This document shows positions 24,336 through 63,271 of a DNA stretch of 64,000 nucleotides, one piece after another. The translations under genes and the position numbers were made by a program. Below the pieces are notes generated by a model. It searched no databases, was not told the origin of the DNA, and was given only the letters and a program-made list of their open reading frames with translations. The stretch lies in NCBI GenBank assembly GCA_039586365.1, contig JBDHKN010000006.1:7162-71161 (forward strand), given 5' to 3'. The stretch is from Gemmatimonadota bacterium. Its GTDB lineage: Bacteria > Gemmatimonadota > Gemmatimonadetes > Gemmatimonadales > GWC2-71-9. Position 1 is the stretch's first letter; the number at the start of each line of letters is the position of its first letter.

Positions 24336-24789
24336 GTGTGCCCTCAGTGAGTTTTCGGATGGTTCCAAGCCCAAACTCTGGCCGGTCATTTTAGCCCGAT
24401 TCCAGGGAAATGGGAACAGCAGAGGGATGCTAGGGGTGCTACTCCGACAGCCCGAGTCATCATCTCTTTCCCCAACTGTCTGACGCAAGTCTCGGCCTCG
24501 GCGTAGCTAAATGCACCGGTGCGAAGTCCCCAAACTGAATCCAAGCCACTTGCGACTCACCCAATCCCTAAAGGCAATTTGGGAGGCAGTGTGCGACCTT
24601 TTGGAGCAACAAAGATGTTGCTCATTTCGTGCTCCAACTTGGAGTTTCCTGGCATCCGCCACGTTCCTGCGCTCAAGAATTGCGGTGTCGTTACTTTAGG
24701 TTTCTGGCGGGGATTCCGTTGGAACCTTATTATCCCGCGCCTGGGTTACAGCATTCTCCTGCCGTTTGATGATTCTCGGAGGTCTGTGC

Positions 24790-26103
24790 TTGAAGGAACA
24801 AAGCTCGAGCCACAAAGAACGTTCCCGCTCCGCAGTGCTATGTGAGCGTGCTGGCAAAGTGCTCGTGGGCGGAGTGAACAGTCCGGTGCGTGCCTTCCGA
24901 GCGGTGGGAGGCAAGCCGGTCTTCATAGACCGCATGGAGGGTGCGTGCGTCCACGACGTGGATGGAAACACCTATGTAGATCTAGTGGGCAGTTGGGGGC
25001 CCTCGGTTGTGGGGCACGCGCACGCGGACGTGGTTGAGGCGGTGCGAGAGGCGGCCGCACGGGGTCTGAGTTTTGGCGCTTGTTGTGCAGCGGAGGCTGA
25101 GTTGGCGGAACTCATCGTCGGGGCCGTGCCATCCATTGAGCTGGTCCGGTTCGTCAACAGCGGTACCGAAGCTACCATGAGTGCGATCCGCCTCGCACGG
25201 GCCGCCACGGGTAGGTCCAAGATCCTCAAGTTCGTGGGGTGCTACCATGGGCACGTCGACGGGCTGTTAGTGGCTGCCGGTTCGGGAGCGGCTACGTTTG
25301 GGGTGCCCGATTCGGCTGGTGTGCCTGCATCGTACACCCGTGAAACCCTACTGGCTCAATTCAATGACTTGAAGGCAGTAGAACGGGTCATGAGCCGGCA
25401 TGGCTCGGAGGTAGCCGCGATCTTGGTTGAGCCGGTGGCGGGGAATATGGGCTACGTGGAGCCGGTTCGCGGATTCTTGGGGGGGCTGCGCACACTGTGC
25501 GATGAACATGGCAGCCTGTTGATCTTCGACGAAGTGATGACCGGCTTCAGGGTCGCGTGGGGCGGTTATCAGAACTCTTGTGGCATCAATCCCAATTTGA
25601 CCTGCTTGGGCAAAGTCATTGGTGGTGGGATGCCGGTAGCAGCCTATGGTGGTGCGAAGGAACTCATGGAGCTGGTGAGTCCTCTGGGGCCAACCTATCA
25701 AGCCGGTACGCTGAGCGGCAGCCCCGTCGGCATGGCTGCCGGTATCGCGACTCTGAAGCTGTGCAAGGCGACCGGCTTCTACGATTCGCTACATGGCAAG
25801 TCCCTGCAACTTGCGCTGGGGCTCCAAGCAGCAGCAGCTGAGGCGGGTCTTACCGTGCAGACGGGTGCCACTGGAGGGATGTTGGGTATGGCTTTCCTGG
25901 ACCGGCCGGTGCGCAACTTCGCTGACGCGCAGGCCTGCAATCACGATCTGTTTGCTGCGTTCTTCCGAGCGATGCTGGACCGGGGCGTTTGGCTGCCACC
26001 CTCGGGATACGAAGCCATGTTCCTCTCCGCCGCGCACGACGACGACGCGATCGGGCGGATTCTCGACGCAGCAAGAGAGAGCTTCCGAATTCGACTGCCA
26101 TGA
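24790..26103 (+). CDS. hemL: Glutamate-1-semialdehyde 2,1-aminomutase
   Basis: GGVNSPVRAFRAVGG, SGTEATMSAIRLAR, DEVMTGFR and the GKVIGGG lysine motif. Start is uncertain: TTG 24790, 7 nt after GGAGG, or ATG 24766. Confidence 0.92.
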   Translation: MKEQSSSHKERSRSAVLCERAGKVLVGGVNSPVRAFRAVGGKPVFIDRMEGACVHDVDGNTYVDLVGSWGPSVVGHAHADVVEAVREAAARGLSFGACCAAEAELAELIVGAVPSIELVRFVNSGTEATMSAIRLARAATGRSKILKFVGCYHGHVDGLLVAAGSGAATFGVPDSAGVPASYTRETLLAQFNDLKAVERVMSRHGSEVAAILVEPVAGNMGYVEPVRGFLGGLRTLCDEHGSLLIFDEVMTGFRVAWGGYQNSCGINPNLTCLGKVIGGGMPVAAYGGAKELMELVSPLGPTYQAGTLSGSPVGMAAGIATLKLCKATGFYDSLHGKSLQLALGLQAAAAEAGLTVQTGATGGMLGMAFLDRPVRNFADAQACNHDLFAAFFRAMLDRGVWLPPSGYEAMFLSAAHDDDAIGRILDAARESFRIRLP

Positions 26104-26990
26104 ACTCCCTACGTGTGGGAACTCGTGGCAGCGATCTGGCGCTATGGCAGGCGAACTGGATCTGTGATCGGTTGCGCGATACGCACTCAGGTGTGGCGGC
26201 CGAGCTAGTTGTCATCAAGACCCACGGTGACGTGACTGCGGATGAGAGGTTCGGTCGGACCTGGCCTGTAGGAGCGTTCGTCAGGGCGTTGGAAACGGCC
26301 CTGCTCGACGAGAGGATCGATGTCGCGGTGCACAGCTGCAAAGACCTGCAGACCACTCAGACGAGCGGGCTGCGGATTGCGGCAACGCCGGTGCGGGAAG
26401 TCGCGAACGACGTGCTCCTAACCAGCACGGGCGTACGATTGGACAGCCTGCCTCCCCTCGCGCGCATCGGGACGAGCAGTCCGCGCCGGGCCGCCCAGAT
26501 ACTACAACTGGGGGACTTCGAGATCGTCCCTCTGCGGGGCAATGTTCCGACTCGTATAGCCAAGATGGAGCAGCAAGGTCTCGATGGGATCGTGCTGGCG
26601 GCGGCCGGGCTCAGGCGGTTGGGGATCGACTATCCCCACGCGATCGACCTCCCCACGGATAGCTTCGTTCCCGCGCCGGGCCAGGGTGCGTTGGCGGTTC
26701 AGGTGCGTGCAGGGAGTGAAGCCTCGGAGCTAGTGACGGTCCTGGAGGATCCGCCGACGCGCGCAGCCGTTACCGCCGAGCGGTGTCTCCTCCGCGAGAT
26801 CAACGCGGGCTGCCACACACCGGTCGGTGCGCTGGCCACGGTGGATGCCGGGACGATATCACTCCAGGCGCAGTTGTTCAGTGACGATTACAGGCGCTGC
26901 GTGGCAGGTAGCGAGTCGGGTATGATTCCCGAGGTCATCGGAGCAAGCTTAGCCCGCAGACTGATGGAAGAGCTACGGGGCCGGCGGTAG
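26100..26990 (+). CDS. hemC: Hydroxymethylbilane synthase (porphobilinogen deaminase)
   Basis: ATG 26100 (ATGA overlap with the hemL stop) gives MNSLRVGTRGSDLALWQANW, with IKTHGD, GTSSPRR, RGNVPTR and a GCHTPVGA cysteine motif. Confidence 0.93.
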   Translation: MNSLRVGTRGSDLALWQANWICDRLRDTHSGVAAELVVIKTHGDVTADERFGRTWPVGAFVRALETALLDERIDVAVHSCKDLQTTQTSGLRIAATPVREVANDVLLTSTGVRLDSLPPLARIGTSSPRRAAQILQLGDFEIVPLRGNVPTRIAKMEQQGLDGIVLAAAGLRRLGIDYPHAIDLPTDSFVPAPGQGALAVQVRAGSEASELVTVLEDPPTRAAVTAERCLLREINAGCHTPVGALATVDAGTISLQAQLFSDDYRRCVAGSESGMIPEVIGASLARRLMEELRGRR

Positions 26991-26997
26991 TAGCTGC

Positions 26998-28023
26998 TCA
27001 GCCGTGGGTTTCTTGCCACCAGCGGGCGTAGTCCAACGCTGCATAAGAGAATATCAGGTCTGCACCGGCGCGCGATATCCCCAAGAGCGCCTCTGTCATG
27101 CAGGCCCGGTAGTCGAGCCAACCCCTATCCGCCGCCGCTTTGATCATGGAGTATTCTCCGCTCACTTGGTATGCGGCGATTGGTAGTGCAGTACCTTTCC
27201 GGAGCCGGCTTATCACGTCGAGGTAGGGAAGAGCTGGTTTGACCATTAGGATGTCCGCACCCTCATCCTCGTCGAGCATGGCCTCGACTGACGCTTCGCG
27301 GGCGTTTGCCGGGTCAATCTGGTAAGTCTTTTTGTCCGTGGGGACGTTTGGGGCGGCAGCCGGGGCGGAATCGAGCGCCTCCCGAAATGGTCCGTAGTAC
27401 CCCGAGGCATACTTTGCGGTGTAACTCAGAATAGCCACGTCAAACGCCTCTGCCGCGTCTAGGGCAGCGCGGATGGCGGCGACCCGCCCATCCATCATGT
27501 CGGACGGAGCGACCATGTCTGCACCGGCTTCCGCATGCAGCACGGCCATCCTGGCCAACATATCTACGGTTTCATCGTTGAGTATTGTCCCATCTGGAGA
27601 GACCAGTCCGTCGTGTCCATGACTCGAATAGGGGTCAAGAGCGATATCAGTGACAATGTAGGCTTCGGGGATCGCTTGCTTCAGAGTCTGAACCGCTTGG
27701 CAGAGCAGGTTGTCCGGATTCACCGCCTCCTGCGCATCAGGTGTCTTGCGAGATGGATCGATGGCAGGGAACAGAGCGAAAGCACCTAGGCCCAGCGAAA
27801 GGGCCTCCTTACATCGCTTGATGATTAGATCTACCGACAGGCGGGCATGGCCAGGCATCGCTTCGATCGGCTGGGATATGTTCCGACCAGCTACTGTGAA
27901 CAGCGGCAGGACCAGGTGGTTGGGCCCGAGGTTGGCCTCCTGTACCAAGCCACGTATGACGGCGTTGCGTCGCAGTCGGCGGGGGCGACGCCACGGACGG
28001 GGAAGTTCGGACAGCGAATGCAT
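26998..28023 (-). CDS. hemB: Porphobilinogen synthase (delta-aminolevulinate dehydratase)
   Basis: 341 aa with RPRRLRRNAVIRGLVQE, VAPSDMMDGRV, YASGYYGPFREA, MVKPALPYLD and the active-site pattern. Confidence 0.95.
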   Translation of the reverse strand: MHSLSELPRPWRRPRRLRRNAVIRGLVQEANLGPNHLVLPLFTVAGRNISQPIEAMPGHARLSVDLIIKRCKEALSLGLGAFALFPAIDPSRKTPDAQEAVNPDNLLCQAVQTLKQAIPEAYIVTDIALDPYSSHGHDGLVSPDGTILNDETVDMLARMAVLHAEAGADMVAPSDMMDGRVAAIRAALDAAEAFDVAILSYTAKYASGYYGPFREALDSAPAAAPNVPTDKKTYQIDPANAREASVEAMLDEDEGADILMVKPALPYLDVISRLRKGTALPIAAYQVSGEYSMIKAAADRGWLDYRACMTEALLGISRAGADLIFSYAALDYARWWQETHG

Positions 28024-29429: not shown

Positions 29430-29897
29430 ATGCCAAGTTTCGTAAACCCGGACAAATGTGACGGATGCAAGGCTCTCGACAAGACGGCCTGTCAGTTCAT
29501 TTGCCCGAACGACCTCATGGTCTTGAACAAGGATACCATGAAGGCCTTCAACCAGGATCCACAGATGTGCTGGGAGTGCTACAGCTGCGTGAAGATCTGT
29601 CCGACGCAGGCGATTGAGGTACGTGGGTACGCTGACTTCGTGCCGCTGGGAGCGAGTGTTACGGCGATGCGCAGTACCGAGGACATCATGTGGACGGTTC
29701 AGTTCCGCAGTAAGGAGATCAAGCCGAAGCGGTTCAAGTTTCCCCACCGTAGGGGTGTTGAGGAAGGCAAAGCACAGCCATTCGATCACTATCCGACGGG
29801 CGACGATGATATCAAGAGCCCGACCTTGATGTGTGAGCCAGCCGGACTGAATACCGATAGAGGTCCGGTGAAAATGGACAAGGTGCCGACGGTGTAG
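29430..29897 (+). CDS. aprB: Adenylylsulfate (APS) reductase beta subunit
   Basis: MPSFVNPDKCDGCKALDKTACQFICPNDLM...CWECYSCVKICPTQAI, two [4Fe-4S] motifs, plus the extended C-terminal tail typical of AprB. RBS GAAAGGAAGAAGGAAG. Confidence 0.95.
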   Translation: MPSFVNPDKCDGCKALDKTACQFICPNDLMVLNKDTMKAFNQDPQMCWECYSCVKICPTQAIEVRGYADFVPLGASVTAMRSTEDIMWTVQFRSKEIKPKRFKFPHRRGVEEGKAQPFDHYPTGDDDIKSPTLMCEPAGLNTDRGPVKMDKVPTV

Positions 29898-29961: not shown

Positions 29962-31854
29962 ATGCCGAAATTTGAAACCGTAACGGTTGAGACGGACCTG
30001 CTGATCTGCGGCGGCGGGATGGCCGCCTGCGGTGCAGCTGTGGAAGCGGCGTACTGGGCCAAAAGGCATGGGCTGAAGGTCACGGTGGTCGACAAGGCGG
30101 CGATGGACCGCTCTGGGGCTGTCGCGATGGGCCTCTCTGCCATCAACCAGTACGTGGACCTGAACAGCGGTAACAACACGCTGAACGATTACATCGACTA
30201 CGTCCGCAACGACCTCATGGGTATCACGCGTGAGGATCTGGTAGCGAGCATCGCACGTCACGTGGACTCGACTGTCCACCTCTTCGAGAAGTGGGGTCTG
30301 CCCATCTGGAAGGACCAGGACGGCAACTATGTCCACGAGGGTCGTTGGCAGTTGATGATCAATGGTGAGTCGTACAAAGTCATCGTTGCCGAGGCAGCCA
30401 AGAACGCCCTGGCTGAGGCCGGTGGGGAGTACTTCGAGCGCGTCTTCATAACCCACCCACTGATGGACGGTGACAAGTGCGTGGGTGCGATTGGCTTCAG
30501 CGTCAGAGAGAACAAGGTGTATGTCTTCAAGGCCAAGGCCACGTTGGTGGCCATGGGTGGAGCGGTGCACGTGTTCAAGCCGCGCTCCACTGGTGAGGGC
30601 TTCGGCCGTTCCTGGTATCCGCCGTTCAACTCCGGCGCCAGCGCCTTTTTCACAATCTATGCCGGTGCCGAGATGACCTGTCAGGAAGTCCGGTTCATTC
30701 CGGTGCGCTTCAAAGACGCGTACGGACCGGTCGGTGCGTGGTTCCTGCTATTCAAGTCTATCGCAACGAATGCTTACGGCGGCAACTACATGCAGGACAA
30801 CGCCGCAGAGCTCGACAAGTGGGAGCCCTACGGCAAGGTGAAGCCGCGTCCCGCCAACATCCGCAATTGGCTGATGATGTTGGATGTAATGGAAGGCAAG
30901 AGCCCCATCTACATGCAGACAGCCGATGCCATCAAGGCAATTGCCGACAAAGCACCGGACGAGAAGGCCGCTAAGAAGAAGCTGAAGGAGCTGGAAGCAG
31001 AAGCTTGGGAGGACTTCCTCGACATGACGATCTCGCAGGCGATTCTCTGGGCTGCAACGAATGTCGAGCCCGAAAGGAAGCCGTCCGAGATCATGGCTTG
31101 TGATCCCTACTTCATCGGCTCCCACTCCGGTGCGTCCGGGGCTTGGGTCTCTGGACCGGAAGACCTCCAGACTGCGGAGACCAAGGCTGAGTACTTCTGG
31201 GGCTATCCGCACATGACGACGGTCAAAGGGATGTTCGCCGCGGGTGACGCCTCGGGAGCTTCGAGCCACAAGTTCTCATCCGGCTCGCACGCCGAAGGCC
31301 GTATTGCCGCCAAGGGAGCCATCTCCTACATCGTCGACAACAACACCCCACCCAACGTGGACCAGAAGCAGGTCGACGCGTTGACAGAGGAGATCCTGAA
31401 GCCACTCGACACCTTTGAGCAGTTCAAGGGTGCCACGACTGATCCGAACATCAATCCCAACTACATCCGCCCAACGCAGTTCATGTACCGGCTGCAGAAG
31501 ATCATGGACGAGTATTCGGGTGGTGTGTCGAGTCAGTTCAAGACCAATGACAAGCTCCTCGAGAAGGGCATGGAGTTGCTGGGTTACCTCAAGGAAGATG
31601 CTGGTCAACTCGCGGCGGAGAACCTACACGAGCTGATGCGGTGCTGGGAGAACGTCCATCGGATGTTCCAGGCGGACGCGCACATGCGTTCCATTCTCTT
31701 TCGTGAGGAGACTCGTTGGCCAGGTTACTACTTCCGGGCTGACAAGCCAAGCATGGACGACAAGAATTGGCTCGCCTTCTGCAATTGTGTTTACAAGAAG
31801 GACACGGGCGAGTGGGAGATGATCAAGAGGCCTGTCAAGCGCATCACAGCGTAG
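29962..31854 (+). CDS. aprA: Adenylylsulfate (APS) reductase alpha subunit (FAD)
   Basis: 630 aa with N-terminal FAD fold DLLICGGGMAACGAA and AprA-specific blocks (RWQLMINGESYK, FAAGDASGASSHKFSSGSHAEGR, RWPGYYFRAD). Confidence 0.97.
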   Translation: MPKFETVTVETDLLICGGGMAACGAAVEAAYWAKRHGLKVTVVDKAAMDRSGAVAMGLSAINQYVDLNSGNNTLNDYIDYVRNDLMGITREDLVASIARHVDSTVHLFEKWGLPIWKDQDGNYVHEGRWQLMINGESYKVIVAEAAKNALAEAGGEYFERVFITHPLMDGDKCVGAIGFSVRENKVYVFKAKATLVAMGGAVHVFKPRSTGEGFGRSWYPPFNSGASAFFTIYAGAEMTCQEVRFIPVRFKDAYGPVGAWFLLFKSIATNAYGGNYMQDNAAELDKWEPYGKVKPRPANIRNWLMMLDVMEGKSPIYMQTADAIKAIADKAPDEKAAKKKLKELEAEAWEDFLDMTISQAILWAATNVEPERKPSEIMACDPYFIGSHSGASGAWVSGPEDLQTAETKAEYFWGYPHMTTVKGMFAAGDASGASSHKFSSGSHAEGRIAAKGAISYIVDNNTPPNVDQKQVDALTEEILKPLDTFEQFKGATTDPNINPNYIRPTQFMYRLQKIMDEYSGGVSSQFKTNDKLLEKGMELLGYLKEDAGQLAAENLHELMRCWENVHRMFQADAHMRSILFREETRWPGYYFRADKPSMDDKNWLAFCNCVYKKDTGEWEMIKRPVKRITA

Positions 31855-32037
31855 GCTAAATAGATCTGCCAGGATTCTTGGGCGTCGCGGTGCGGCGTCC
31901 GAGGGTCCTGACTCCTGAATCAACTTCGATTTTCCTTCGTGCAAGTCCGAAGGCGTCTTTACAGACTGTGGGGCCGTGAACGGATGATCGCGGTTCCCGG
32001 ACCAATCCGAAGGACCGTTGAGCAACCGAGGAATCCC

Positions 32038-32322
32038 ATGGCAGACACACGTCGAACCTGCCCCCACTGCGGATCCCACCTCAAGAAGTGGTTGGTTCCG
32101 GCTGAGGCGAGCTGGAGCGAGGAGTTCTTCTTTGTCTGTTTCAATGACGACTGCTCCTACTATAAGGACGGCTGGCGCTGGATGAAAGAGAAGTACAACC
32201 AAGAAGCTTCCTATCGATACATGATCAATCCAACTACCGGTGCCGCATCGATGATACCAGTGTGGTCTGACTCCGCAACTCGGGAAATGGTGGTGGAGGA
32301 TGCCGAAGGAGATGAAGCATGA
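32038..32322 (+). CDS. Small zinc-ribbon protein of unknown function (apr/qmo-embedded)
   Basis: ATG 32038, 8 nt after GAGGA, gives 94 aa: MADTRRTCPHCGSHL...FVCFNDDCSYYKDGWRWM... (CxxC ... CxxxxC) with an acidic tail. Its stop overlaps the next start (ATGA at 32319-32322). Confidence 0.6.
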   Translation: MADTRRTCPHCGSHLKKWLVPAEASWSEEFFFVCFNDDCSYYKDGWRWMKEKYNQEASYRYMINPTTGAASMIPVWSDSATREMVVEDAEGDEA

Positions 32323-33209
32323 GCGACGGTCAGGACTCCCCGACCAGGGACCAACGTGAACAGCTGCAAGAGAAGATATTGACGGAATACCCTCGGCTCG
32401 GGCGGGACGACACGTTCCAGTTCTCTTGTCACCCCGGCGTGTCCTGCTTCAACAAGTGCTGCGGCGACGTCAACATATTCCTTTCTCCATATGATGTACT
32501 GCGAATGAAGCGGCGGCTCGGCATGAGTTCGACCGCTTTTCTGGACAAATACGCCCTCATGCCCGTTCAGAAGGACATGAAGACACCCGTCGTCATGCTG
32601 CGTATGAACGAGGACGATACTAAGAGTTGCCCTCACTTGACGGGCGGGGGGTGCGGCATCTACTCGGACCGACCATGGCCTTGTCGCATGTATCCGTTGG
32701 GGTTGGCGGCACAAAAGGATACGTCAGATGGATGGCGGGGTGATCGGTTCTATTTCGTGCTGCAAGAAGAAGGGTGTAAGGGATTCGGGGAAGGGCAGCA
32801 GTGGACGGTGCAGCAGTGGCTCGATGACCAAGGCATCGGCGAGTACGACGAATGGGGAGAAGCGTTCAAGGAACTGGCGCTTCACAAGTTCTTCGAGGAA
32901 GGTGGCGTCCTTTCACCTGAGAAGATGCACATGTTCTTCACTGCGTGCTACGACTTGGACAAGTTCCGGGAGTTCGTGTTCGGTAGCACGCTGTTGCAGC
33001 GGTTCGAGATGGACGAAGACTTCGTTGAAGAAATGCGCTACGAGGATGAAGCGTTGTTGCGGTTCGCGTTCTTGTGGCTGCGATTCAGTCTCTTCGGCGA
33101 GCCAACAATGAAGGTGAAGAAGGGCGTTTTCGAAGCCTTCAAGGGAAGCGTCGACAAGAAGCGGTTGTTCGACAGAGAGTTGGTCAAGACCTCCGAAGGG
33201 GATGCATGA
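32319..33209 (+). CDS. YkgJ-family (UPF0153) cysteine-cluster protein, long form
   Basis: 296 aa. CHPGVSCFNKCCGD and CPHLTGGGCGIYSDRPWPCRMYP match the YkgJ/CxxCxxCC family pattern. Overlaps both neighbours' stop/start codons. Confidence 0.75.
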   Translation: MSDGQDSPTRDQREQLQEKILTEYPRLGRDDTFQFSCHPGVSCFNKCCGDVNIFLSPYDVLRMKRRLGMSSTAFLDKYALMPVQKDMKTPVVMLRMNEDDTKSCPHLTGGGCGIYSDRPWPCRMYPLGLAAQKDTSDGWRGDRFYFVLQEEGCKGFGEGQQWTVQQWLDDQGIGEYDEWGEAFKELALHKFFEEGGVLSPEKMHMFFTACYDLDKFREFVFGSTLLQRFEMDEDFVEEMRYEDEALLRFAFLWLRFSLFGEPTMKVKKGVFEAFKGSVDKKRLFDRELVKTSEGDA

Positions 33210-34474
33210 TGAGCGGGCATGGCAAGAAGGGAAAGATCCTCGTGGTTGGTGGCGGGATCAGCGGTGTGACTGCAGCTGTGGAAGCAGCCGAGGCGGGTTG
33301 CGAGGTGGTGCTGGTGGAGAGGAATCCGTACTTGGGTGGCCGGGTGGCTCAAATGAACCAGTACTTCCCGAAACTCTGTCCGCCCAATTGCGGCTTGGAG
33401 ATAAACTTCCGTCGCATGAAGACCAATCCGCGGATTCAAATTCTAACGACGTCGGAAGTCGAGCAGATCACTGGTGCACCGGGCCACTACAAGGCAACGA
33501 TCCGCCAGCATCCGCGGTTTGTAAACAGTAAATGCACCGGTTGCGGCGCATGCGTAGATGCTTGTCCAGTGGAGCGGCCCGACGCATTCAACTACGGAAT
33601 GGGGTCGACCAAGGCAGTGTACCTGCCCTACGAGATGGCCTACCCGATGCGGTTCGTGATCGACGGCAGCGTGTGCCCCGGAGCAGAGTGCGGCAAGTGC
33701 GTACCGGCGTGTCCCTACGATGCCATCGACCTGGCCATGCAACCGGGGGTAATCGAACTGGAAGTCCAGGCGGTTGTCTGGGCCACCGGCTGGGACCCCT
33801 ACGATGCGAAGAAGATCGAAGGTCTGGGTTTTGGGACATATCCGAACGTGATAACCAATGTCATGATGGAGCGGCTGGCTGCACTCGGTGGTCCCACTGC
33901 AGGAAAGATTCAGCGACCCTCGGATGCCAAGGAAATCGAGTCGGCAGCGTTCGTTCAGTGTGCCGGTTCTCGCGACGAAAACTACCTGAAGCACTGCTCT
34001 GGAGTGTGCTGTCTCGGATCGCTCAAGCAGGCCCGCTACGTTCGCGAACAGTATCCCGAGGCGCAGATCTACATCTTCTACATCGACATCCGCGCACCAG
34101 GTCGGCTCGAGGATTTCTTCGTGGCGACCGAGGCAGACGAGAGACTCACTCTGATCAAAGGCAAAGTCGCTAAGATCGTCGAAGATTCGGCTAGTGGCGA
34201 TCTGCAGGTCGAGGCGGAGGACACGCTCTCGGGTGAGCGGGTGATACAGAAGGTAGATCTCGTTGTGCTGGCGACAGGTTTGGTGCCAAACGGTGCCGGT
34301 GCCACACAGGTCGAGGGTGGCTTGTCGACCGATGAGGACGGGTTCCTGCAGACCGAGCAGTCGCTTGGTGGACTGCTGGCCGCCGGATGTGCTAAGCGCC
34401 CGACGGAAGTGGCAACATGTGTTCGTGATGCCACCGGCGCTGTAGCAAAGGCTTTGCACTTCAGCGGGGAGTAG
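33206..34474 (+). CDS. qmoA: Quinone-interacting membrane-bound oxidoreductase subunit A (HdrA-like flavoprotein)
   Basis: ATGATG at 33206 overlaps the upstream stop. KILVVGGGISGVTAAVEAAEAGCEVVLVERNPYLGGR FAD fold, CTGCGACVDACP ferredoxin motif, and the GCAKRP C-terminal FAD motif. Confidence 0.9.
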   Translation: MMSGHGKKGKILVVGGGISGVTAAVEAAEAGCEVVLVERNPYLGGRVAQMNQYFPKLCPPNCGLEINFRRMKTNPRIQILTTSEVEQITGAPGHYKATIRQHPRFVNSKCTGCGACVDACPVERPDAFNYGMGSTKAVYLPYEMAYPMRFVIDGSVCPGAECGKCVPACPYDAIDLAMQPGVIELEVQAVVWATGWDPYDAKKIEGLGFGTYPNVITNVMMERLAALGGPTAGKIQRPSDAKEIESAAFVQCAGSRDENYLKHCSGVCCLGSLKQARYVREQYPEAQIYIFYIDIRAPGRLEDFFVATEADERLTLIKGKVAKIVEDSASGDLQVEAEDTLSGERVIQKVDLVVLATGLVPNGAGATQVEGGLSTDEDGFLQTEQSLGGLLAAGCAKRPTEVATCVRDATGAVAKALHFSGE

Positions 34475-34478
34475 AGCG

Positions 34479-36722
34479 GTGGAAAAGAAAGTAGCCGTTT
34501 ACATATGCCAAGGTTGCGATATCGGAGCCTCGTTGGATGTCGGGGCGCTGAGCAAGGTTGCCACTGGTGAGTGCAACGCGGCGATTTGCCGTGACCACGA
34601 ATGTCTCTGCTGCGACGAAGGCCGCGAAATGATAAAGCAGGATGTCCGGGAGGGCGCCAACGCTCTGGTGGTCGCTGCCTGCTCACCGCGCTTCATGACT
34701 GACGTCTTCATGTTCGATGGGTGCCGGACGGAACGGGTGAACTTGCGGGAGCACGTGGTCTGGAGCCACGAGCCAAACGACGAAGACACCCAGATGCTCG
34801 CTGACGACTATCTGCGCATGGGGGTAGCGCGGGCAAAGAAAGCGGAACTGCCCGATTCCTTCGAGACAGAGATCAACAAGACTGTTCTCGTGGTAGGGGG
34901 CGGGGCGACGGGCATGACGGCAGCCTTGGACGCAGCTGGTGCTGGCTACGAAGTGGTGCTGGTGGAAAGAGAGGAACAACTGGGTGGCTGGGCCGGCAAG
35001 TTCAAGTATCGGTTCCCGCTGAGTGCACCCTACCGAGAGCTGGAGTTGGTCGATCTCAAGCCGCGCATTGAAGCGGTCGAGAGCAATGAACGGATCAAGG
35101 TCTACAAAGGTGCCACGATAGGGCGCATTGACGGACAGCCCGGACAGTTTGATGTCTCTGTCAAGGCCAATGGCTCGTCAGCCGAGTTCCGTGTCGGCGC
35201 TATCGTGCAGGCAACGGGCTGGAAGCCATACGACGCGTCCAAACTTGGCCACTTGGGATACGGTCGCTGCCCCAACGTGATCACCAACGTTGAGATGGAG
35301 GAGTTGATCGCTGCCGGCAAGATCAACCGTCCCTCCGATGGTAAGCCCGCCCGTCGCATTGCCTTCATCCAGTGCGCGGGATCTCGCGATAAGGAACACT
35401 TGCCGTACTGCTCGGGAGTGTGTTGTCGCGTGACGATCAAGCAAGCGATGGTTGCCCGGCAGTACGACTCGGAGACTGAGGCCTACGTGCTCTACAAGGA
35501 CATCCGCACGCCGGGTCAATACGAGGACTTTTATCGCCGGGCTCAAGAAGACAGCGGCATCTTCTTCACCAAGGCGGAGGTCGTGGGTGTCGAGGAGACG
35601 GGAGAGCACAACCTGCAGGTGGAAGCAAAGGACACGCTGCTCGGTGACAGGATCTTGGTCGAGGCCGACTTGGTCGTCTTGGCCACCGGTATGGTGCCCA
35701 CCGCGGCTGATGGAGAGCTAATCCGCCGCTTCGTAGACGCCAAGGCGGTCGTCGCAAAAGGCGAAGCAGGTGCACAACTGGAAGCGGCCAAGAAGACGGT
35801 GGAGGAACTGCAGCATGTTGAGGGAACCTCGATTCTCAATTTGACCTATCGGCAGGGACCGGACCTCCCGTCTCTCAAATACGACTTCCCCGACTCGCAT
35901 TTCATCTGTTTCCCTTACGAGACACGACGCACCAGTATCTATACGGCCGGCTGCCTGCGCGCACCGAGTGATTCCCTGGTTTCTATGGAGGACGGTGCCG
36001 GTGCTGCGCTCAAGGCAATTCAGAGCCTAGAGTTGGCCGCCAAAGGAGAGGCGGTGCATCCTCGTTGGGGTGATGCTTCCTTTCCCGACTTCTTCCTGCA
36101 GCGGTGTACGCAGTGCAAGCGGTGCACTGAGGAATGCCCCTTTGGAACTCTGAACGAGGATGTCAAGGGCACGCCGCAACCCAATATCACTCGCTGCCGC
36201 CGGTGCGGCATTTGTATGGGCGCGTGTCCCGAACGGATCATCTCGTTCAAAGACTACTCCGTAGAAATCATCTCCTCGATGATCAAATCGGTTGAGATCC
36301 CCGACGAGTTCGAGGAGAAGCCTCGTCTGCTCGGCCTGATCTGTGAGAATGATGCCTATCCCACTCTTGACACAGCCGGCCTCAAGCGAATCAAGCACAG
36401 CGCGTTCATTCGCCTTATACCGGTGCGGTGCCTGGGATCCGTAAACATCGTCTGGATTGCCGACGCTTTGTCGCGTGGCTTTGACGGAATCCTGCTAGTC
36501 GGATGCAAGTCGGGCGACGACTACCAGTGCCATTTCATCCGCGGCAGCGAACTGATGGGCACGCGAAGCGACAACATCCGTGAGAAGCTCACCCAACTGG
36601 CCCTGGAAGAGGAACGCGTGCGGCTGGAGCAACTGCCTATCTCCGAATACGAGAGGCTACCGCAAATCATCAACGAGTTTGCGGAGCAGATTGAAGAGAT
36701 TGGATTGAACCCGTTCAAGTGA
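34479..36722 (+). CDS. qmoB: Qmo subunit B (HdrA-like with C-terminal MvhD-like domain)
   Basis: 747 aa. VLVVGGGATGMTAALDAAGAGYEVVLVERE, two CxxCxxCxxxCP motifs (CTQCKRCTEECP, CRRCGICMGACP), and an MvhD-like end (ILLVGCKSGDDYQCHF). Confidence 0.9.
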   Translation: MEKKVAVYICQGCDIGASLDVGALSKVATGECNAAICRDHECLCCDEGREMIKQDVREGANALVVAACSPRFMTDVFMFDGCRTERVNLREHVVWSHEPNDEDTQMLADDYLRMGVARAKKAELPDSFETEINKTVLVVGGGATGMTAALDAAGAGYEVVLVEREEQLGGWAGKFKYRFPLSAPYRELELVDLKPRIEAVESNERIKVYKGATIGRIDGQPGQFDVSVKANGSSAEFRVGAIVQATGWKPYDASKLGHLGYGRCPNVITNVEMEELIAAGKINRPSDGKPARRIAFIQCAGSRDKEHLPYCSGVCCRVTIKQAMVARQYDSETEAYVLYKDIRTPGQYEDFYRRAQEDSGIFFTKAEVVGVEETGEHNLQVEAKDTLLGDRILVEADLVVLATGMVPTAADGELIRRFVDAKAVVAKGEAGAQLEAAKKTVEELQHVEGTSILNLTYRQGPDLPSLKYDFPDSHFICFPYETRRTSIYTAGCLRAPSDSLVSMEDGAGAALKAIQSLELAAKGEAVHPRWGDASFPDFFLQRCTQCKRCTEECPFGTLNEDVKGTPQPNITRCRRCGICMGACPERIISFKDYSVEIISSMIKSVEIPDEFEEKPRLLGLICENDAYPTLDTAGLKRIKHSAFIRLIPVRCLGSVNIVWIADALSRGFDGILLVGCKSGDDYQCHFIRGSELMGTRSDNIREKLTQLALEEERVRLEQLPISEYERLPQIINEFAEQIEEIGLNPFK

Positions 36723-36739
36723 CCCTAGGAGCGCCGAGG

Positions 36740-36844
36740 ATGTCCGAGGCCCTATTGTTGAAACCGGACCGGAAGTTCGTCGAGGCGATCGTCGCATCAG
36801 GTGGTGACGGATCTGGGCTCAGTGGGGTCTCAGAGACCGTCTAA
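36740..36844 (+). pseudogene. qmoC: 34-codon ORF encoding only the conserved QmoC N-terminus (remnant or leader of split qmoC)
   Basis: MSEALLLKPDRKFVEAIVASGGDG... follows the QmoC N-terminal pattern (xPDxxFVxxxxxxGGD) but then runs out of frame to a TAA that overlaps the next ATG (TAATG at 36842-36846). RBS AGGAG/GAGGA upstream. Confidence 0.5.
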
Positions 36845-37911
36845 TGGCGGACCCTGACATCTGGCTTTGCCACCAGTGCAACGACTGTTCCAAGAAATGC
36901 CCGCGCGGGGCACGACCGGGTGACGTGCTCGCAGCGGTACGCAAACAAGCGGTGCAGTACCATTCGGCTCCGCGGTTTCTTGGCAACTTGGTGAATCGCA
37001 CCAAGTACTTCCCGCTGCTGTTCATGGCTTTGCCGGCAATACTACTGGCGCTGGCACTTACGGTTCGCGAGCCCCTGGAGCAGTTGCTCTCGCTCGGTGA
37101 GCCCCACGAAGCTCTGTACGCTGCGTTTTTCCCCCATTGGCTGCTGATCGGGTTCTACGCGTCCTTCACGGGTTTGGCCTTCATCGGTGCTGTGGTAGGC
37201 GTTGTGCGGTTCTGGCAAGCGATGCGAGTTGCTGACGCAGGTACCGATTCGGGACCACAGACTCTCGGAGTTGTACCCAGTATGGTACGGACCCTCAGAT
37301 CGATCCTCTTCCATGACAAGTTCGCCAAGTGTACGGATCAAGCCTCTCGGCGCTGGACGCATTTGCTGGCTTTCTACGGTTTCGTAGCGTTGTTCGTGGT
37401 CACGATCTGGGCGACCATCGACCTTTACTTAATGCCCGTATTTGGAGTGGATTCGCTCTATCCCTTTGACCTTCTTCACCCTATGAAGCTGCTCGCGAAC
37501 GTAGGTGGTGTGGTGTTGGTGGTCGGGTGTGTGAAGGCGATAACTGACCGCAGGCGTAGCCAATCGTCGGTCACCACGGCATTCGACAATCTCTTTGTTT
37601 GGTTGCTGCTGGGTGTGGCCGTTACGGGGTTCCTGACTGAGGTGTTCCGGTTCGCAATAGAGGGCGCAGGGCAATCAGGACTGACATTCAGCGCCTATTT
37701 CACGTATTTCGTACACCTGGTACTGGTGTTCGGGCTGCTGGTTTACCTGCCCTATTCGAAGTTCGCTCACTTGATATACCGCACGGTTGCTCTGGTTTAC
37801 GCCGAGCATTCTGGACGGAACTTAGACGGTCGCCAACTGCTGCCGGCGGCAGGCGCCCGGCCGCAGATTGAATCTCATGCTGACAAGGCCATCGAGGCCG
37901 CAAACGCGTGA
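36844..37911 (+). CDS. qmoC: Qmo subunit C, N-terminally truncated form (one Fe-S motif plus a heme-b membrane domain)
   Basis: [28 protein letters not shown] followed by ~6 TM helices (HdrE/NarI-like). The frame is also open upstream from 36808 (RIWAQWGLRDRL), which corresponds to canonical QmoC sequence following its first Fe-S motif. Confidence 0.85.
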
Positions 37912-46702: not shown

Positions 46703-47779
46703 ATGGCAACCGAGAGAATAACTGATATCGGGCCTCCGCATTACGAAAAATTCCTACCACCCGTGATAAAGCAAAACTACGGGAAGTGGAAATACCACGA
46801 GATCCTCAGGCCCGGCGTGATGGTTCACGTGGCCGAATCCGGCGACAAGCTCTTCACGGTGCGTGCGGCCTCACCACGGCTGCTCGGCATCAAGAAGATC
46901 CGCGAGTTCGCGGATCTGGCGGACAAGTATTGTGGTGGGCACCTCCGCTTCACTAGCCGCAACAACGTCGAATTCCTGCTTACGGACGATTCGAAGATCA
47001 ACGATCTCATCGCCGACCTGAAGAAATTGGGACATCCGGTGGGCGGCATAGGCAACGCGATCTCCAACATCGTTCACACGCAGGGATGGGTACACTGCCA
47101 CTCAGCTGCGACGGATGCATCCGGTGTTGTGAAAGCGGTGATGGACGATCTGTGTGGGTACTTCACTGGCGATATCGAACTGCCAGGCAAGCTGCGGGTC
47201 GCCCTTGCGTGCTGTCTCAATATGTGTGGTGCGGTGCACTGTTCGGACATCGCGATCCTAGGTATACACCGCAGGCCGCCAAGAATCCAAGCTGGTCTGA
47301 ATAAGGTATGCGAAATCCCCAACGTGGTGGCTTCCTGTCCCACGGCAGCAATCCGGCCGGCAACAGTTGACGGTGCTCCCACGGTAGAGATAGATGAAGA
47401 GAACTGCATGTTCTGCGCGAACTGTTTCTCGGTCTGCCCGGCACTACCAATGGCTGACGCGCTCAACGACGGTGTATCCATCTGGGTCGGGGGGAAAGTC
47501 TCGAACGCCCGCAAGGAACCAACCTTCTCCAAGCTGGCTATTCCGTTCTTGCCCAACAATCCGCCGCGGTGGCCGGAGGTGACTGAGGCTGTGCGGAACA
47601 TAGTGGAAGTATGGGTCAAGAACGCCCGCAAGTTCGAGCGGATGGGTGAGTTCATCGAGCGTATCGGCTGGCCCCGTTTCTTCAAGATGACGGGCATTGA
47701 GTTCGCTAAAGAGCATATTGACGATTACAAATACGCGGGCCTTTCGTACAAACGGTCTGCACAGCTCAGACACAACTAG
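46703..47779 (+). CDS. dsrB: Dissimilatory sulfite reductase beta subunit
   Basis: [73 protein letters not shown], and a ferredoxin insert [12 protein letters not shown]. Confidence 0.97.
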
Positions 47780-47789
47780 GAGGTGTACG

Positions 47790-48035
47790 GTGGCCGTCAC
47801 GCCCGAAGAAGTAGCGGACGCCATGTACGAGTTGGTCAAGGAGTATCAGGGCAAGAAGAAGCTCAAAGCCGGTGACTTGACCAAGGCGATGATCCAGAAG
47901 TATGGCGAAGGCGAAGTGGACAAGAAGCTGTGCAAGGCCGCCATCCGGACTCTGATGGATTCGGGAAGGTGTGTCTACACGTACTTCGGCGGCAGCTTCA
48001 TAGAACTCCCGCCCGAGGAAGGCGTTGAGAGGTAG
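47790..48035 (+). CDS. dsrD: DsrD-like small winged-helix protein
   Basis: GTG 47790, 6 nt after AGGAGG, gives 81 aa. Lys-rich centre (QGKKKLKAGDLTK) and a C-terminal ...AIRTLMDSGRCVYTYFGGSFIEL resembling the DsrD ...ILTALV...YWSSGSTTMY pattern. Located directly after dsrB. Confidence 0.7.
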   Translation: MAVTPEEVADAMYELVKEYQGKKKLKAGDLTKAMIQKYGEGEVDKKLCKAAIRTLMDSGRCVYTYFGGSFIELPPEEGVER

Positions 48036-48147: not shown

Positions 48148-49824
48148 ATGGCTATGAAGAAGGTCAAGAAAAAGAAGAAGTCTTTCGGTTCGAGGGGCGG
48201 CGCCTCGCGTGACCAATCGCCACTGCGACCCAAACACGTGGAGAAGAAGCCCCCATGTAGGGATACATGTCCGAGCGGCAACGATATTCGCAAGTTTCTG
48301 ACGACGCTCGCTCATGCTGAGCGGCTAGGAAAGACGGCGGAGCAAGCACTCCAAGAAGCTTGGGAGGTCTACACGGACACTAGTCCGTTTCCGTCGGTGT
48401 GTGGCCGGGTATGTCCGGCTCCATGTGAAACCGGATGCAACCGGAAGGACCTCGATGGTGCGGTGAGTATCAATAAGGTCGAACGGGCCATCGGCGACTT
48501 CGGTCTGGCGAGGGGTCTCAAGCTGAAGGCCCTCTCTGATGAGAAGAAACCGCAGAAGATAGCCGTCGTAGGCGCGGGTCCCAGTGGCCTTTCCTGTGCC
48601 TACCAGCTGGCTCGGCGCGGATATGGCGTAACCGTCTTCGAGTCCACGGAGAAGACTGGCGGCATGTTGCGGTGGGGCATCCCCGGGTATCGGCTACCCG
48701 AATCGGTACTCGACGGAGAGATCCAGAAGATCCTCGACCTGGGAGTGGAACTCAAGTGCGGCGTGAAGGTGGGCAAGGACATCACCGTTGATGAGCTGAA
48801 GCAGTCATACGATGCCGTATACGTCGCGCTCGGCGCCCAGCAGGGAGTCACTCTGGGCGTTGAAGGTGAGGATGCTCCCAACGTGTTCTCCGGAGTGGAT
48901 TTCCTCAGCCGTTTCCACCACGGTGAAAAGCTGGACCTGGGCAAGGATGTGGTGGTAATCATCGTCGGTGGAGGTGACACCGCCATCGACGCGGCGCGGA
49001 TCTGCAAACGGCTGGGCGCCAATGTAACGATCCTATACCGCCGAACCCGCAAGGAGATGCCGGCGATCGATGAGGAAGTCGATGAGGCGATCAAAGAAGG
49101 CATCACAATCGAGTTTCTGGCCGCACCAATAGGTTTCCGCAAAGAGGGCGACCTCGTCGTAGCGATGCGAGCTATCCGCATGGAGTTGGGTGAGCCGGAC
49201 TCGTCAGGTCGTCGTCGACCGGTTCCCATCGAGGGTTCGGAGTTCGAGATACCCGCCAGCGCAGTCATCTCTGCGGTGAGTCAGGCACCCGATTTCGGCG
49301 GCTTCGAGGATCTCATCGAAGGCAAGGATTGGATCAAGGTCGACAACCAGGGGGCAACCAAGGTGGCAGGAATATGGGCTGGTGGCGACGTGACAGCCCT
49401 GGATCTAGTCACGACTGCCGTAGGTCACGGTCGGCGCGCAGCCGAGGCGATCGAACGCAAATTCCTGGGCAGGCAATTCGAAGAAGACAGGATGACGGTG
49501 ATCAGAAGTGATCGTATGCTGTTGGATCACTACGACAAGATAGACCGTCAAGAACCTGCAGCCCTGGATGTTGGCGAGCGTTTGACCTCGATCGAAACGG
49601 AAGTCAACTTGGGTCTAACCGATGACCAAGTGCTGACTGAAGCGCGGCGCTGCATGAGCTGCGGATACTGCATCGATTGCGAGAAGTGCTGGATGTACTG
49701 TCAGGACCAGGCGATTGACAAGCCGCTGCAGAAGGGATTGCTGTATCCGTTCAAGATGCAGAACTGCACAGGCTGCAGTAAGTGTGCGGAAATATGCCCT
49801 TGTGGCTTCATAGAGATGCACTGA
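48148..49824 (+). CDS. dsrL: DsrL-type NAD(P)H:acceptor oxidoreductase (GltD-like flavoprotein with a C-terminal 2x[4Fe-4S] ferredoxin domain)
   Basis: 558 aa. GRVCPAPCETGCNR, IAVVGAGPSGLSCAYQLARRGYGVTVFE, IVGGGDTAIDAAR, and a C-terminal CMSCGYCIDCEKCWMYCQ...CTGCSKCAEICPCG. N-terminus MAMKKVKKKKKS. Confidence 0.85.
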   Translation: MAMKKVKKKKKSFGSRGGASRDQSPLRPKHVEKKPPCRDTCPSGNDIRKFLTTLAHAERLGKTAEQALQEAWEVYTDTSPFPSVCGRVCPAPCETGCNRKDLDGAVSINKVERAIGDFGLARGLKLKALSDEKKPQKIAVVGAGPSGLSCAYQLARRGYGVTVFESTEKTGGMLRWGIPGYRLPESVLDGEIQKILDLGVELKCGVKVGKDITVDELKQSYDAVYVALGAQQGVTLGVEGEDAPNVFSGVDFLSRFHHGEKLDLGKDVVVIIVGGGDTAIDAARICKRLGANVTILYRRTRKEMPAIDEEVDEAIKEGITIEFLAAPIGFRKEGDLVVAMRAIRMELGEPDSSGRRRPVPIEGSEFEIPASAVISAVSQAPDFGGFEDLIEGKDWIKVDNQGATKVAGIWAGGDVTALDLVTTAVGHGRRAAEAIERKFLGRQFEEDRMTVIRSDRMLLDHYDKIDRQEPAALDVGERLTSIETEVNLGLTDDQVLTEARRCMSCGYCIDCEKCWMYCQDQAIDKPLQKGLLYPFKMQNCTGCSKCAEICPCGFIEMH

Positions 49825-57344: not shown

Positions 57345-57387
57345 CTTCATTGAGTGATCCACTCGTTGTGTTGGCGCTCCGATCTCG

Positions 57388-57744
57388 ATGCTGATCTTGA
57401 TTGCACACGGCAGCCGGCGGTCAGAATGGAGAGCGTCTGCAGAGGGTCTGGTCAAATCGCTGCAAACGGACATAGGTCGCGACGCTGTACAGCTCGCTTA
57501 CATGGATTGTACACCGCCGACGCTCATGGAAGTAGTATCCAAAGCGGTACAGCAAGGAATCAAACGAATTCGAGTGCTGCCACTATTTCTAACAGCCGAA
57601 GGACACGTGACCCGTGATATTCACCCTCTTGTGGAGGAGGCACGTGAGTCATATGCCGATGTTGTGTTGGAGCTGCTACCACCAGTTGGCCAGCATCCGA
57701 TGTTCCTGGAACTACTGAAGACAATTGCCATCCGGGAGCCGTGA
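57388..57744 (+). CDS. cbiX: Short CbiX-type sirohydrochlorin chelatase
   Basis: 118 aa. MLILIAHGSRRSEW and VLPLFLTAEGHV (catalytic-His regions), with the length of CbiX(S). Confidence 0.8.
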   Translation: MLILIAHGSRRSEWRASAEGLVKSLQTDIGRDAVQLAYMDCTPPTLMEVVSKAVQQGIKRIRVLPLFLTAEGHVTRDIHPLVEEARESYADVVLELLPPVGQHPMFLELLKTIAIREP

Positions 57745-57748
57745 ATAC

Positions 57749-63269: not shown

Positions 63270-63271
63270 GC

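Follow-up and report, generated by a model that had tools for sequence, protein, structure and literature searches.

The stretch analysed here, a window of 64,000 nucleotides from contig JBDHKN010000006.1 of a Gemmatimonadota bacterium, carries a complete dissimilatory-sulfur supercluster in the order rex-aprBA-ZnR-YkgJ-qmoABC-sat-dsrC-dsrT-dsrMKJOP-dsrAB-dsrD-dsrL-dsrN. The first-pass annotation of this window had pointed out two extra open reading frames (ORFs) of 94 and 296 amino acids between aprA and qmoA, and our gene calls agree. Directly 3' of aprA (29962-31854, plus strand), which encodes the alpha subunit of adenosine 5'-phosphosulfate (APS) reductase (TIGR02061, 878 bits), lie two genes on the same strand: ZnR (32038-32322), encoding an acidic four-cysteine zinc-ribbon protein, and a YkgJ-like gene (32319-33209), whose product has an eight-cysteine N-terminal domain. 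They are followed on the plus strand by qmoA (start at 33206 or 33209, end at 34474), which encodes an HdrA-like protein with FAD and Fer4 domains. The locus is a new, widespread variant of the apr-qmo arrangement with two uncharacterised proteins, and the pair is very probably a dedicated accessory of dissimilatory sulfur metabolism.

The ribosome-binding site of ZnR is an AGGA located 8 nt upstream of its start. The start of the YkgJ-like gene overlaps the stop of ZnR in an ATGA at 32319-32322, exactly as first described. At the other end, the stop codon of the YkgJ-like gene (TGA, 33207-33209) overlaps either the qmoA ATG at 33206 by 4 nt or an in-frame ATG at 33209 by 1 nt. The overlap reported for this second junction is therefore real, whereas the ATGATGA motif containing it spans 33206-33212 and not 33206-33209.

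Homologues of both proteins were counted as protein clusters in a collection of 5.8 billion proteins, which yielded 1634 homologous clusters for the YkgJ-like protein and 250 for ZnR. For each protein, the 120 best of these clusters were 70-95% identical and of equal length. Where NCBI gives names, these are 'YkgJ family cysteine cluster protein' and 'ogr/Delta-like zinc finger family protein', and the named homologues come from metagenome-assembled genomes (MAGs) of Planctomycetota, Gemmatimonadota, Latescibacteria and Chitinivibrionia. When the genes were compared with those of 80 related loci, the differences at the first, second and third codon positions were 0.20/0.19/0.50 for ZnR and 0.22/0.15/0.49 for the YkgJ-like gene, similar to the 0.19/0.17/0.54 of QmoA. 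Third positions vary 2.4-3.2 times more than first and second positions in both genes, as they do in QmoA and QmoB. Because of the many homologous clusters and this codon-position pattern, the two ORFs cannot be attributed to chance; they are real genes under purifying selection. Moreover, ZnR homologues are 94 amino acids long in 111 of about 150 loci and share a common N-terminus, indicating that the ATG at 32038 is the real start of ZnR. The mean identity of related proteins to those of the window was 87% for AprA, 86% for DsrC, 85% for AprB, 74% for QmoB, 71% for QmoA, 71% for the YkgJ-like protein, 68% for ZnR and 53% for QmoC. Both proteins are thus about as conserved as QmoA and QmoB.

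About 160 related loci (labelled L in the following) from MAGs and metagenomes of Gemmatimonadota, Planctomycetota, Latescibacterota and others were examined. A scan of one genome per GTDB species detected relatives in 240 species, the best 80 of which were analysed. An independent scan of Joint Genome Institute (JGI) metagenomes with ZnR as seed detected at least 499 stretches, and again the best 80 were analysed. The best 80 genome loci are all from MAGs, mostly of Gemmatimonadota and Planctomycetota, and the remainder includes some Latescibacterota, Desulfobacter(aceae), Chitinivibrionia and Spirochaetales; these labels are those of the MAGs, for which binning errors are possible. In these two sets, aprA was located directly 5' of ZnR in 58/61 genome and 64/65 metagenome loci with that side visible (about 95%), and qmoA directly 3' of the YkgJ-like gene in 68/76 genome and 43/53 metagenome loci that were informative (about 85%). 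The two genes were inseparable: the YkgJ-like gene follows ZnR in all 80 genome loci and in 78 of 78 informative metagenome loci. Apart from qmoA, the gene after YkgJ-like in the 53 metagenome loci was TauE four times and a YkgJ paralogue four times. All ZnR contexts in both sets are apr, qmo or dsr. The functional tie to Apr and Qmo that had been proposed from the window is therefore supported by a linkage that held across genome and metagenome loci.

The overlaps between the genes are conserved as well. A 4-nt overlap between ZnR and the YkgJ-like gene was found in 101 of 136 loci, and an overlap of 4 or 1 nt between the YkgJ-like gene and qmoA in 65 of 94 loci (both sets). This conserved translational coupling is consistent with co-production with Qmo, as supposed at the outset. 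Between aprA and ZnR there is a spacer of 64-341 nt in every locus of both sets (median 170). In the window this spacer measures 183 nt (31855-32037) and contains a GC-rich stem-loop on the plus strand at approximately 31870-31910, which follows the aprA stop and has a stem of 18-19 bp (z = -3.0). Homologous spacers occur in L002-L082. In 64 of 76 loci, the 90 nt that follow aprA fold with z < -2, and of the 12 pairs in an RNAalifold helix calculated from 44 loci, 9 show compensatory double changes. In some loci (L015, L023, L027) the hairpin is followed by a T-run. The hairpin probably acts as a partial terminator or stabilises the mRNA, with the effect that AprBA is expressed at a higher level than the genes downstream. 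Conserved overlaps on one side and a hairpin-bearing spacer on the other indicate that the pair belongs to the translation unit of qmo and not to that of aprBA. Two apparent gene fusions were discarded: the 721-aa ORF in L039 that seemed to join the YkgJ-like protein to QmoA is ruled out by a TAG and a 24-nt spacer, and P0267 (508 aa), which looks like a ZnR-YkgJ-QmoA fusion, has a garbled sequence and is a frameshifted gene call.

In the canonical loci described to date, aprBA is directly followed by qmoABC (PMC3333476), so the arrangement was rightly called different from these. Two genes at this site have been reported once before, in Thermonerobacter thiotrophicus, for which Thiel et al. 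(2019) list 'two conserved hypothetical genes' after aprA without analysis or comment (PMC6338057). These two unnamed ORFs follow aprA directly and precede a qmoC-type gene, a layout like that of L019, L036, L041 and L105; judged by this layout, they are likely to be ZnR and the YkgJ-like gene. This was the single mention of extra genes after aprA in the literature searched, in which we found no study of apr- or dsr-linked YkgJ genes. The large comparative studies of Dsr/Apr/Qmo synteny and of marine Gemmatimonadota do not mention the pair.

Other additions to qmo loci are known. In Gram-positive sulfate reducers and some sulfur oxidisers, qmoAB is followed by HdrBC, which like the pair provides an extra cysteine-rich cytoplasmic protein beside QmoAB and is thought to complete the Hdr-like electron path (PMC10504309). 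HdrBC is, however, not homologous to the pair and is encoded 3' of qmoB, whereas the pair lies 5' of qmoA in loci that also contain qmoC. The last gene of the qmo operon of Desulfovibrio vulgaris, DVU0851, resembles the pair in being small, without assigned function and co-transcribed with qmoABC (PMC3125180). It was set aside as a homologue, since it is reported to have no homologues outside Desulfovibrio (PMC3125180), whereas the pair occurs in several phyla and adjoins the opposite end of qmo. For DVU0851 it was argued that the gene is a passenger, and the canonical loci lacking ZnR and the YkgJ-like gene would agree with the same explanation here, namely that both are functionally unrelated genes inserted by chance. 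Considering that at least 240 GTDB species and no fewer than 499 metagenome stretches retain the arrangement, with its coupling and purifying selection, and that dsr and qmo associations are found independently in distant lineages, this explanation is very unlikely.

Loci with a different gene after the pair are informative. L002, L018 and L022 lack qmoAB; here a further YkgJ paralogue and a DsrM-like/DsrK-like gene pair lie 3' of the pair. In L019, L036, L041 and L105, the order is sat-aprBA-ZnR-YkgJ-TauE-QmoC-like, with a TauE-type permease gene joined to the preceding YkgJ-like gene by an ATGA overlap and followed by a QmoC-like gene. In L035, dsrC comes directly after the pair. These swapped-module loci indicate that the pair remains with aprBA when the membrane module changes. 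The module that stands in for qmoAB in L002, L018 and L022 also has a homologue in the window, where the minus strand at 61650-63982 codes for a second set of DsrK-like (60% identity) and DsrM-like (38% identity) proteins; in L059, L061, L076, L078 and L079, the same module is found just 5' of rex-aprBA.

More distant pairs span 39-54% identity. In L085, L086, L089 and L090 they are 42-45% identical and consist of two tandem YkgJ paralogues and a convergent ZnR inside the dsr cluster. In L091, where no aprBA is visible, qmoABC is closely preceded by two YkgJ paralogues and ZnR. Among cultured sulfate reducers, Desulfarculus baarsii and Desulfobaculum xiamenense contain YkgJ-like members of about 40% identity that have no ZnR nearby and lie in contexts without relation to sulfur; the neighbours are a 2-oxoacid:ferredoxin oxidoreductase and an enzyme like pyruvate formate-lyase (PFL) in one and housekeeping genes in the other. 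From these contexts it follows that the association is with the dissimilatory sulfur gene set, especially Qmo and Apr, in particular lineages and not a property of the whole family. Tandem YkgJ paralogues adjoin PFL-like enzymes of the glycyl-radical type in two loci that are unrelated to each other, L087 (7234-11104, D. baarsii) and L090 (8102-12777), and those of D. baarsii also adjoin a four-subunit 2-oxoacid:ferredoxin oxidoreductase. Such glycyl-radical neighbours may hint at a general biochemical role of the YkgJ family. Just 5' of the tandem genes, a small Zn_ribbon_8 (FmdB-like) protein is encoded in L085 (6675-6932), L089 (7778-8041) and L090 (7703-7954); in these dsr-linked loci it is additional to the Ogr_Delta-type ZnR.

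The YkgJ-like protein had been assigned to the YkgJ/UPF0153 type, which corresponds to COG0727, and its score against PF03692 (CxxCxxCC; 32.8 bits, cut-off 23, residues 42-128) confirms this; all listed homologues carry the same domain. The family members are 240-300 amino acids long and form 179 clusters at E <= 1e-30 among 1.84 billion representatives. In the window, the motifs read CHPGVSCFNKCCGD and CPHLTGGGCGIYSDRPWPCRMYP. The protein has eight conserved cysteines (C37, C43, C47, C48, C104, C112, C122 and C153), including the N-terminal C..C..CC motif typical of the YkgJ family. In an alignment of 123 sequences of 29-95% identity, C37, C43, C47, C48, C112 and C122 are invariant, and C104 and C153 are at least 90% conserved. 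This cysteine pattern suggests that the protein binds Fe-S clusters. The C-terminal part (approximately residues 160-277) is a conserved helical domain with motifs that include Y211, D214 and F216, and it matched no Pfam family. An AlphaFold2 model of the protein reached a pLDDT of 87.5 and a pTM of 0.84. The calculated isoelectric point (pI) is 4.99 and the grand average of hydropathy (GRAVY) -0.55, with no obvious hydrophobic segments. Homology to the CCG domains of HdrB, HdrD and DsrK was rejected, as hhalign of the family profile against the DsrK of the window gave a probability of 0.1 (E 0.63) and PF02754 did not match.

ZnR was likewise correctly described as zinc-ribbon-like. It scores 32.4 bits against PF04606 (Ogr_Delta; cut-off 26.3) over residues 7-50, and its CPHC-x22-CFNDDC contains four invariant cysteines (C8, C11, C34 and C39; CxxC-x22-CxxxxC). 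Twenty columns are invariant, five Trp are conserved, and invariant aromatic residues occur along the whole length. The AlphaFold2 model has a pLDDT of 83.9, and the protein (pI 4.77, GRAVY -0.67) has no obvious hydrophobic segments. Searches of the PDB by sequence and profile were empty for both proteins; Foldseek found no neighbour in the PDB for either model (best E-values 0.7), and no NCBIfam model matched either of them (E <= 0.01 for the YkgJ-like protein).

The Ogr/Delta activators of P2 and P4 phages share with ZnR the PF04606 domain and the four-cysteine zinc ribbon, and the spacing in ZnR presumably equals that of P2 Ogr. Hence, ZnR could be a zinc-finger transcription factor that regulates qmo or dsr with the YkgJ-like protein as redox-sensing partner. 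The PF04606 score above the gathering threshold is in line with this, as is the orientation of ZnR in L085, L089, L090 and L091, where it lies on the strand opposite to its neighbours, as is common for small regulators. Unlike the phage activators, however, ZnR is acidic, has an extra conserved C-terminal half (residues 51-85) and is always paired with a YkgJ-like gene in sulfur loci. Trp, Tyr and Phe make up most of its conserved residues, which are distributed over all 94 amino acids, including the C-terminal part outside the Ogr domain; ZnR matched no PHROG family (E <= 0.01), it is translationally coupled to structural genes, and a Rex-type regulator is already encoded 5' of aprB. We therefore regard a regulatory function as highly improbable. 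Orthology to the Ogr/Delta late activators of phages was rejected in view of the missing PHROG match, the acidic pI and the lack of a phage context.

The YkgJ-like protein resembles FliB of Salmonella in its CX4-5CX3CC motif near the N-terminus and its eight conserved cysteines, and neither of the two has another recognisable domain or a solved structure. FliB comprises about 400 amino acids, compared to 296 in the YkgJ-like protein. The context of FliB is flagellar and that of the YkgJ-like protein apr/qmo, and the YkgJ-like protein, unlike FliB, combines a conserved helical domain of its own at the C-terminus with an obligatory partner of the zinc-ribbon type. Given that no NCBIfam model matched and that there is no flagellar context, it does not belong to the FliB orthologue group. 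FliB is an S-adenosylmethionine (SAM)-dependent flagellin lysine N-methyltransferase with eight conserved cysteines, in which the CX4CX3CC motif binds an essential, oxygen-sensitive [4Fe-4S] cluster (PMC8598068). A second protein of this type, the phage enzyme DpdM, is a homologue of YkgJ from E. coli and methylates dPreQ1 in phage DNA in vivo, and its eight cysteines are predicted to form two metal sites lining a tunnel, one made of the first three motif cysteines and a distal cysteine, the other of the fourth motif cysteine and three more (C42, C92, C102, C112 and C150; PMC10516641). The cysteines of the YkgJ-like protein fit this scheme residue for residue, with C37, C43, C47 and C153 in one site and C48, C104, C112 and C122 in the other. 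C48, C104, C112, C122 and C153 correspond to C42, C92, C102, C112 and C150 of phiSM DpdM, and in both proteins the fourth cysteine is followed by three more at intervals of about 50, 10 and 10 residues. DpdM differs in that its substrate is DNA and its gene is part of a phage deazaguanine cluster. Phage YkgJ-type proteins, which may or may not be DpdM, matched the YkgJ-like protein weakly (E 2e-6 to 1) and in the N-terminal half, with 30 columns aligned by hhalign. With the match limited to the cysteine region and no queC/dpdA-type neighbours in the window, the protein cannot be assigned to DpdM.

Since the only characterised YkgJ-type proteins are N-methyltransferases, enzymatic modification is a serious rival to a redox role. 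Like FliB and DpdM, the YkgJ-like protein would then be an enzyme that transfers a group with the help of a metal or a [4Fe-4S] cluster, most simply an N-methyltransferase, and would modify an Apr, Qmo or Dsr protein or cofactor; ZnR would be its specificity partner or substrate. The essential cluster of FliB (PMC8598068) and the exact fit to the two-site scheme of DpdM (PMC10516641) argue for such an enzyme, and the conserved C-terminal domain could bind the substrate. Further hints are the glycyl-radical neighbours of tandem family members in L087 and L090, the cofactor-maturation gene dsrN and an FKBP-type gene adjoining the dsr-linked pairs, and the family member P0360 (690 aa), in which a radical SAM domain at the N-terminus is naturally fused to a C-terminal YkgJ-like domain including the helical part. 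However, the similarity to FliB and DpdM is confined to the cysteine architecture, and neither the NCBIfam search nor the short, weak phage matches extend it. In these organisms, no Apr, Qmo or Dsr protein is known to be modified or to serve as a target. A conservation at the level of QmoA and QmoB and so strict a coupling to qmoA would rather be expected of stoichiometric subunits, although an enzyme would still be compatible with both. We rank this explanation second, close behind the electron-transfer module described next, and consider it possible but on balance doubtful.

Our first-ranked reading, which we put forward tentatively, is that the pair forms an Fe-S/Zn accessory module that relays or gates electron transfer between Qmo and Apr. 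The electron route between these complexes, described as mechanistically open in the first-pass annotation, is so in the literature as well. QmoABC binds AprAB mainly via QmoA, and electron transfer between the purified complexes was not reconstituted (Ramos et al., PMC3333476). Therefore, a third partner was proposed in 2012, possibly for electron confurcation (PMC3333476). A paper from 2023 still treats the electron donor of APS reductase as unclear (PMC10553843), and no Qmo structure was found in the literature searched. In the proposed mechanism, ZnR and the YkgJ-like protein would be two cytoplasmic, acidic, metal-binding proteins that form a heteromer and would be transcribed and translated as a unit with qmoABC, set apart from aprBA by the conserved stem-loop. 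The YkgJ-like protein would hold two metal sites of four cysteines each, and its CX5CX3CC motif would bind at least one [4Fe-4S] cluster, as does the equivalent CX4CX3CC of FliB (PMC8598068). The zinc ribbon and the C-terminal helical domain would serve as docking surfaces, and the module may be located at the interface of QmoA and AprAB. There it would relay or gate electrons between the Hdr-like membrane module (Qmo or its DsrMK-like replacement) and AprAB.

Across genomes the pair is co-located and co-translated with qmoABC, as expected of Qmo subunits, with exceptions. The first-ranked reading is also favoured by the obligatory co-occurrence of the two genes, by their conservation at the level of Qmo subunits, by their retention behind aprA in the swapped-module loci and by the ZnR gene beside qmoABC in L091. 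Co-evolution was assessed by partial correlations of pairwise distances in 48 loci containing all seven proteins. The correlation was 0.36 between ZnR and the YkgJ-like protein and 0.34 between the YkgJ-like protein and QmoA, which was the highest value of the YkgJ-like protein with any protein outside the pair; AprA and ZnR reached 0.08 despite their adjacency. Known subunit pairs, which served as positive controls, gave 0.26 (AprA-AprB), 0.47 (QmoA-QmoB) and 0.30 (QmoB-QmoC). These values fit an evolution of ZnR, the YkgJ-like protein and QmoA as a unit.

A bolder version, which we consider unlikely, is that the pair is the 'third partner' of Qmo and AprAB itself. In these lineages, the Hdr-like Qmo would then be completed by an Fe-S subunit of a new type without relation to HdrB, which would either inject low-potential electrons or bridge QmoA and AprB, allowing quinol-linked (confurcating) APS reduction. 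If true, a fold known so far only from methyltransferases would have been recruited as a respiratory electron-transfer subunit. Alternatively, the pair could be a chaperone without catalytic activity that helps to insert cofactors into Qmo or AprAB or to assemble their subunits and remains outside the mature complex, comparable to NarJ, which is encoded inside narGHJI. The position inside a structural operon, the translational coupling, the lineage-specific rather than universal occurrence and the location of some pairs elsewhere in the supercluster near other accessory genes all fit a chaperone. On the other hand, eight invariant cysteines and a strictly conserved zinc ribbon point to metal cofactors of their own, the pair is more conserved than QmoC, and the Pfam and NCBIfam searches, which returned PF03692 and PF04606 only, revealed no likeness to known redox-enzyme maturation proteins. 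We rank the chaperone third and judge it rather improbable.

Several observations weigh against the electron-transfer module. FliB and DpdM, the only characterised YkgJ-type proteins in the literature searched, are both metal-dependent N-methyltransferases and not electron carriers, and a conserved helical domain of 120 amino acids is superfluous for a simple relay. The distance correlations track the gene order, so a shared transfer history could explain them without any contact between the proteins. Canonical aprBA-qmoABC loci without the pair at this junction (PMC3333476) indicate that it is not a universal requirement. In L085, L086, L089 and L090 the pair is located between dsrD and dsrN-dsrC-dsrT-dsrMKJOP, with qmoBC-dsrAB upstream, and a Zixibacteria-like contig carries an isolated pair beside an IS481 transposase (YkgJ 54% identical by phmmer, ZnR 52% by tblastn). 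The first-pass annotation had attached special weight to the position exactly at the junction of aprA and qmoA. This position is not essential, as distant pairs occur near dsrN-dsrC, beside qmoABC without apr, or alone.

In the bioenergetics of sulfate respiration, the route of electrons to APS reductase still has to be clarified, and for this the pair provides two small soluble candidate proteins. They are encoded in the apr-qmo-dsr superclusters of widespread sediment lineages, namely Gemmatimonadota, Planctomycetota, Latescibacterota and some Desulfobacterota MAGs. If the YkgJ-like protein were instead an enzyme like FliB or DpdM, this would imply a hitherto unknown modification in the sulfate-reduction machinery and a third function for a poorly understood superfamily. 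Either way, the two genes are useful markers of a distinct, apparently horizontally mobile type of dissimilatory-sulfur cluster and merit naming and tracking in metagenome annotation.

The remaining apr and qmo genes of the window lie on the plus strand and were assigned as follows. The beta subunit of APS reductase is encoded by aprB (29430-29897; TIGR02060, 186 bits; PF12139) and is 74-94% identical across related loci. QmoB (34479-36722) is HdrA-like with a C-terminal FlpD/MvhD domain (PF02662, 130 bits), and qmoC (36844-37911; NF038018, 284 bits) matches its model from position 57 onwards. The 5' part of qmoC is disrupted. Compared to L003, L007 and L017, 85 nt are deleted at the qmoB-qmoC junction (36722-36850). 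The loss includes the first Fe-S motif (CxxCxxCxxxC) and causes a frameshift, and the remaining ORF restarts at 36844. A GATCTG repeat flanks the deletion, indicating either a real lesion or an assembly artefact.

Further along the cluster, dsrD (47697-48035) and dsrL (48148-49824) both adjoin dsrAB, a combination that Thiel et al. called unusual (PMC6338057). Their presence is compatible with the reductive, oxidative or disproportionating direction of the pathway. The gene 3' of qmoC encodes Sat, which across L003-L082 falls into two classes of about 41-48% and 66-86% identity to the window while the synteny is otherwise kept, suggesting a replacement of sat within the cluster. AprA is 83-92% identical across MAGs assigned to different phyla, which may reflect horizontal spread of the whole cluster or binning errors. 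Downstream of dsrN, two cytidylate-kinase-like genes are followed by TauE. Finally, genes of tetrapyrrole and siroheme biosynthesis, among them hemL-, hemC- and hemB-like genes, a ferrochelatase-GluTR fusion and cobA-hemD, flank the supercluster on both sides (24766-28023 and 55098-59296).

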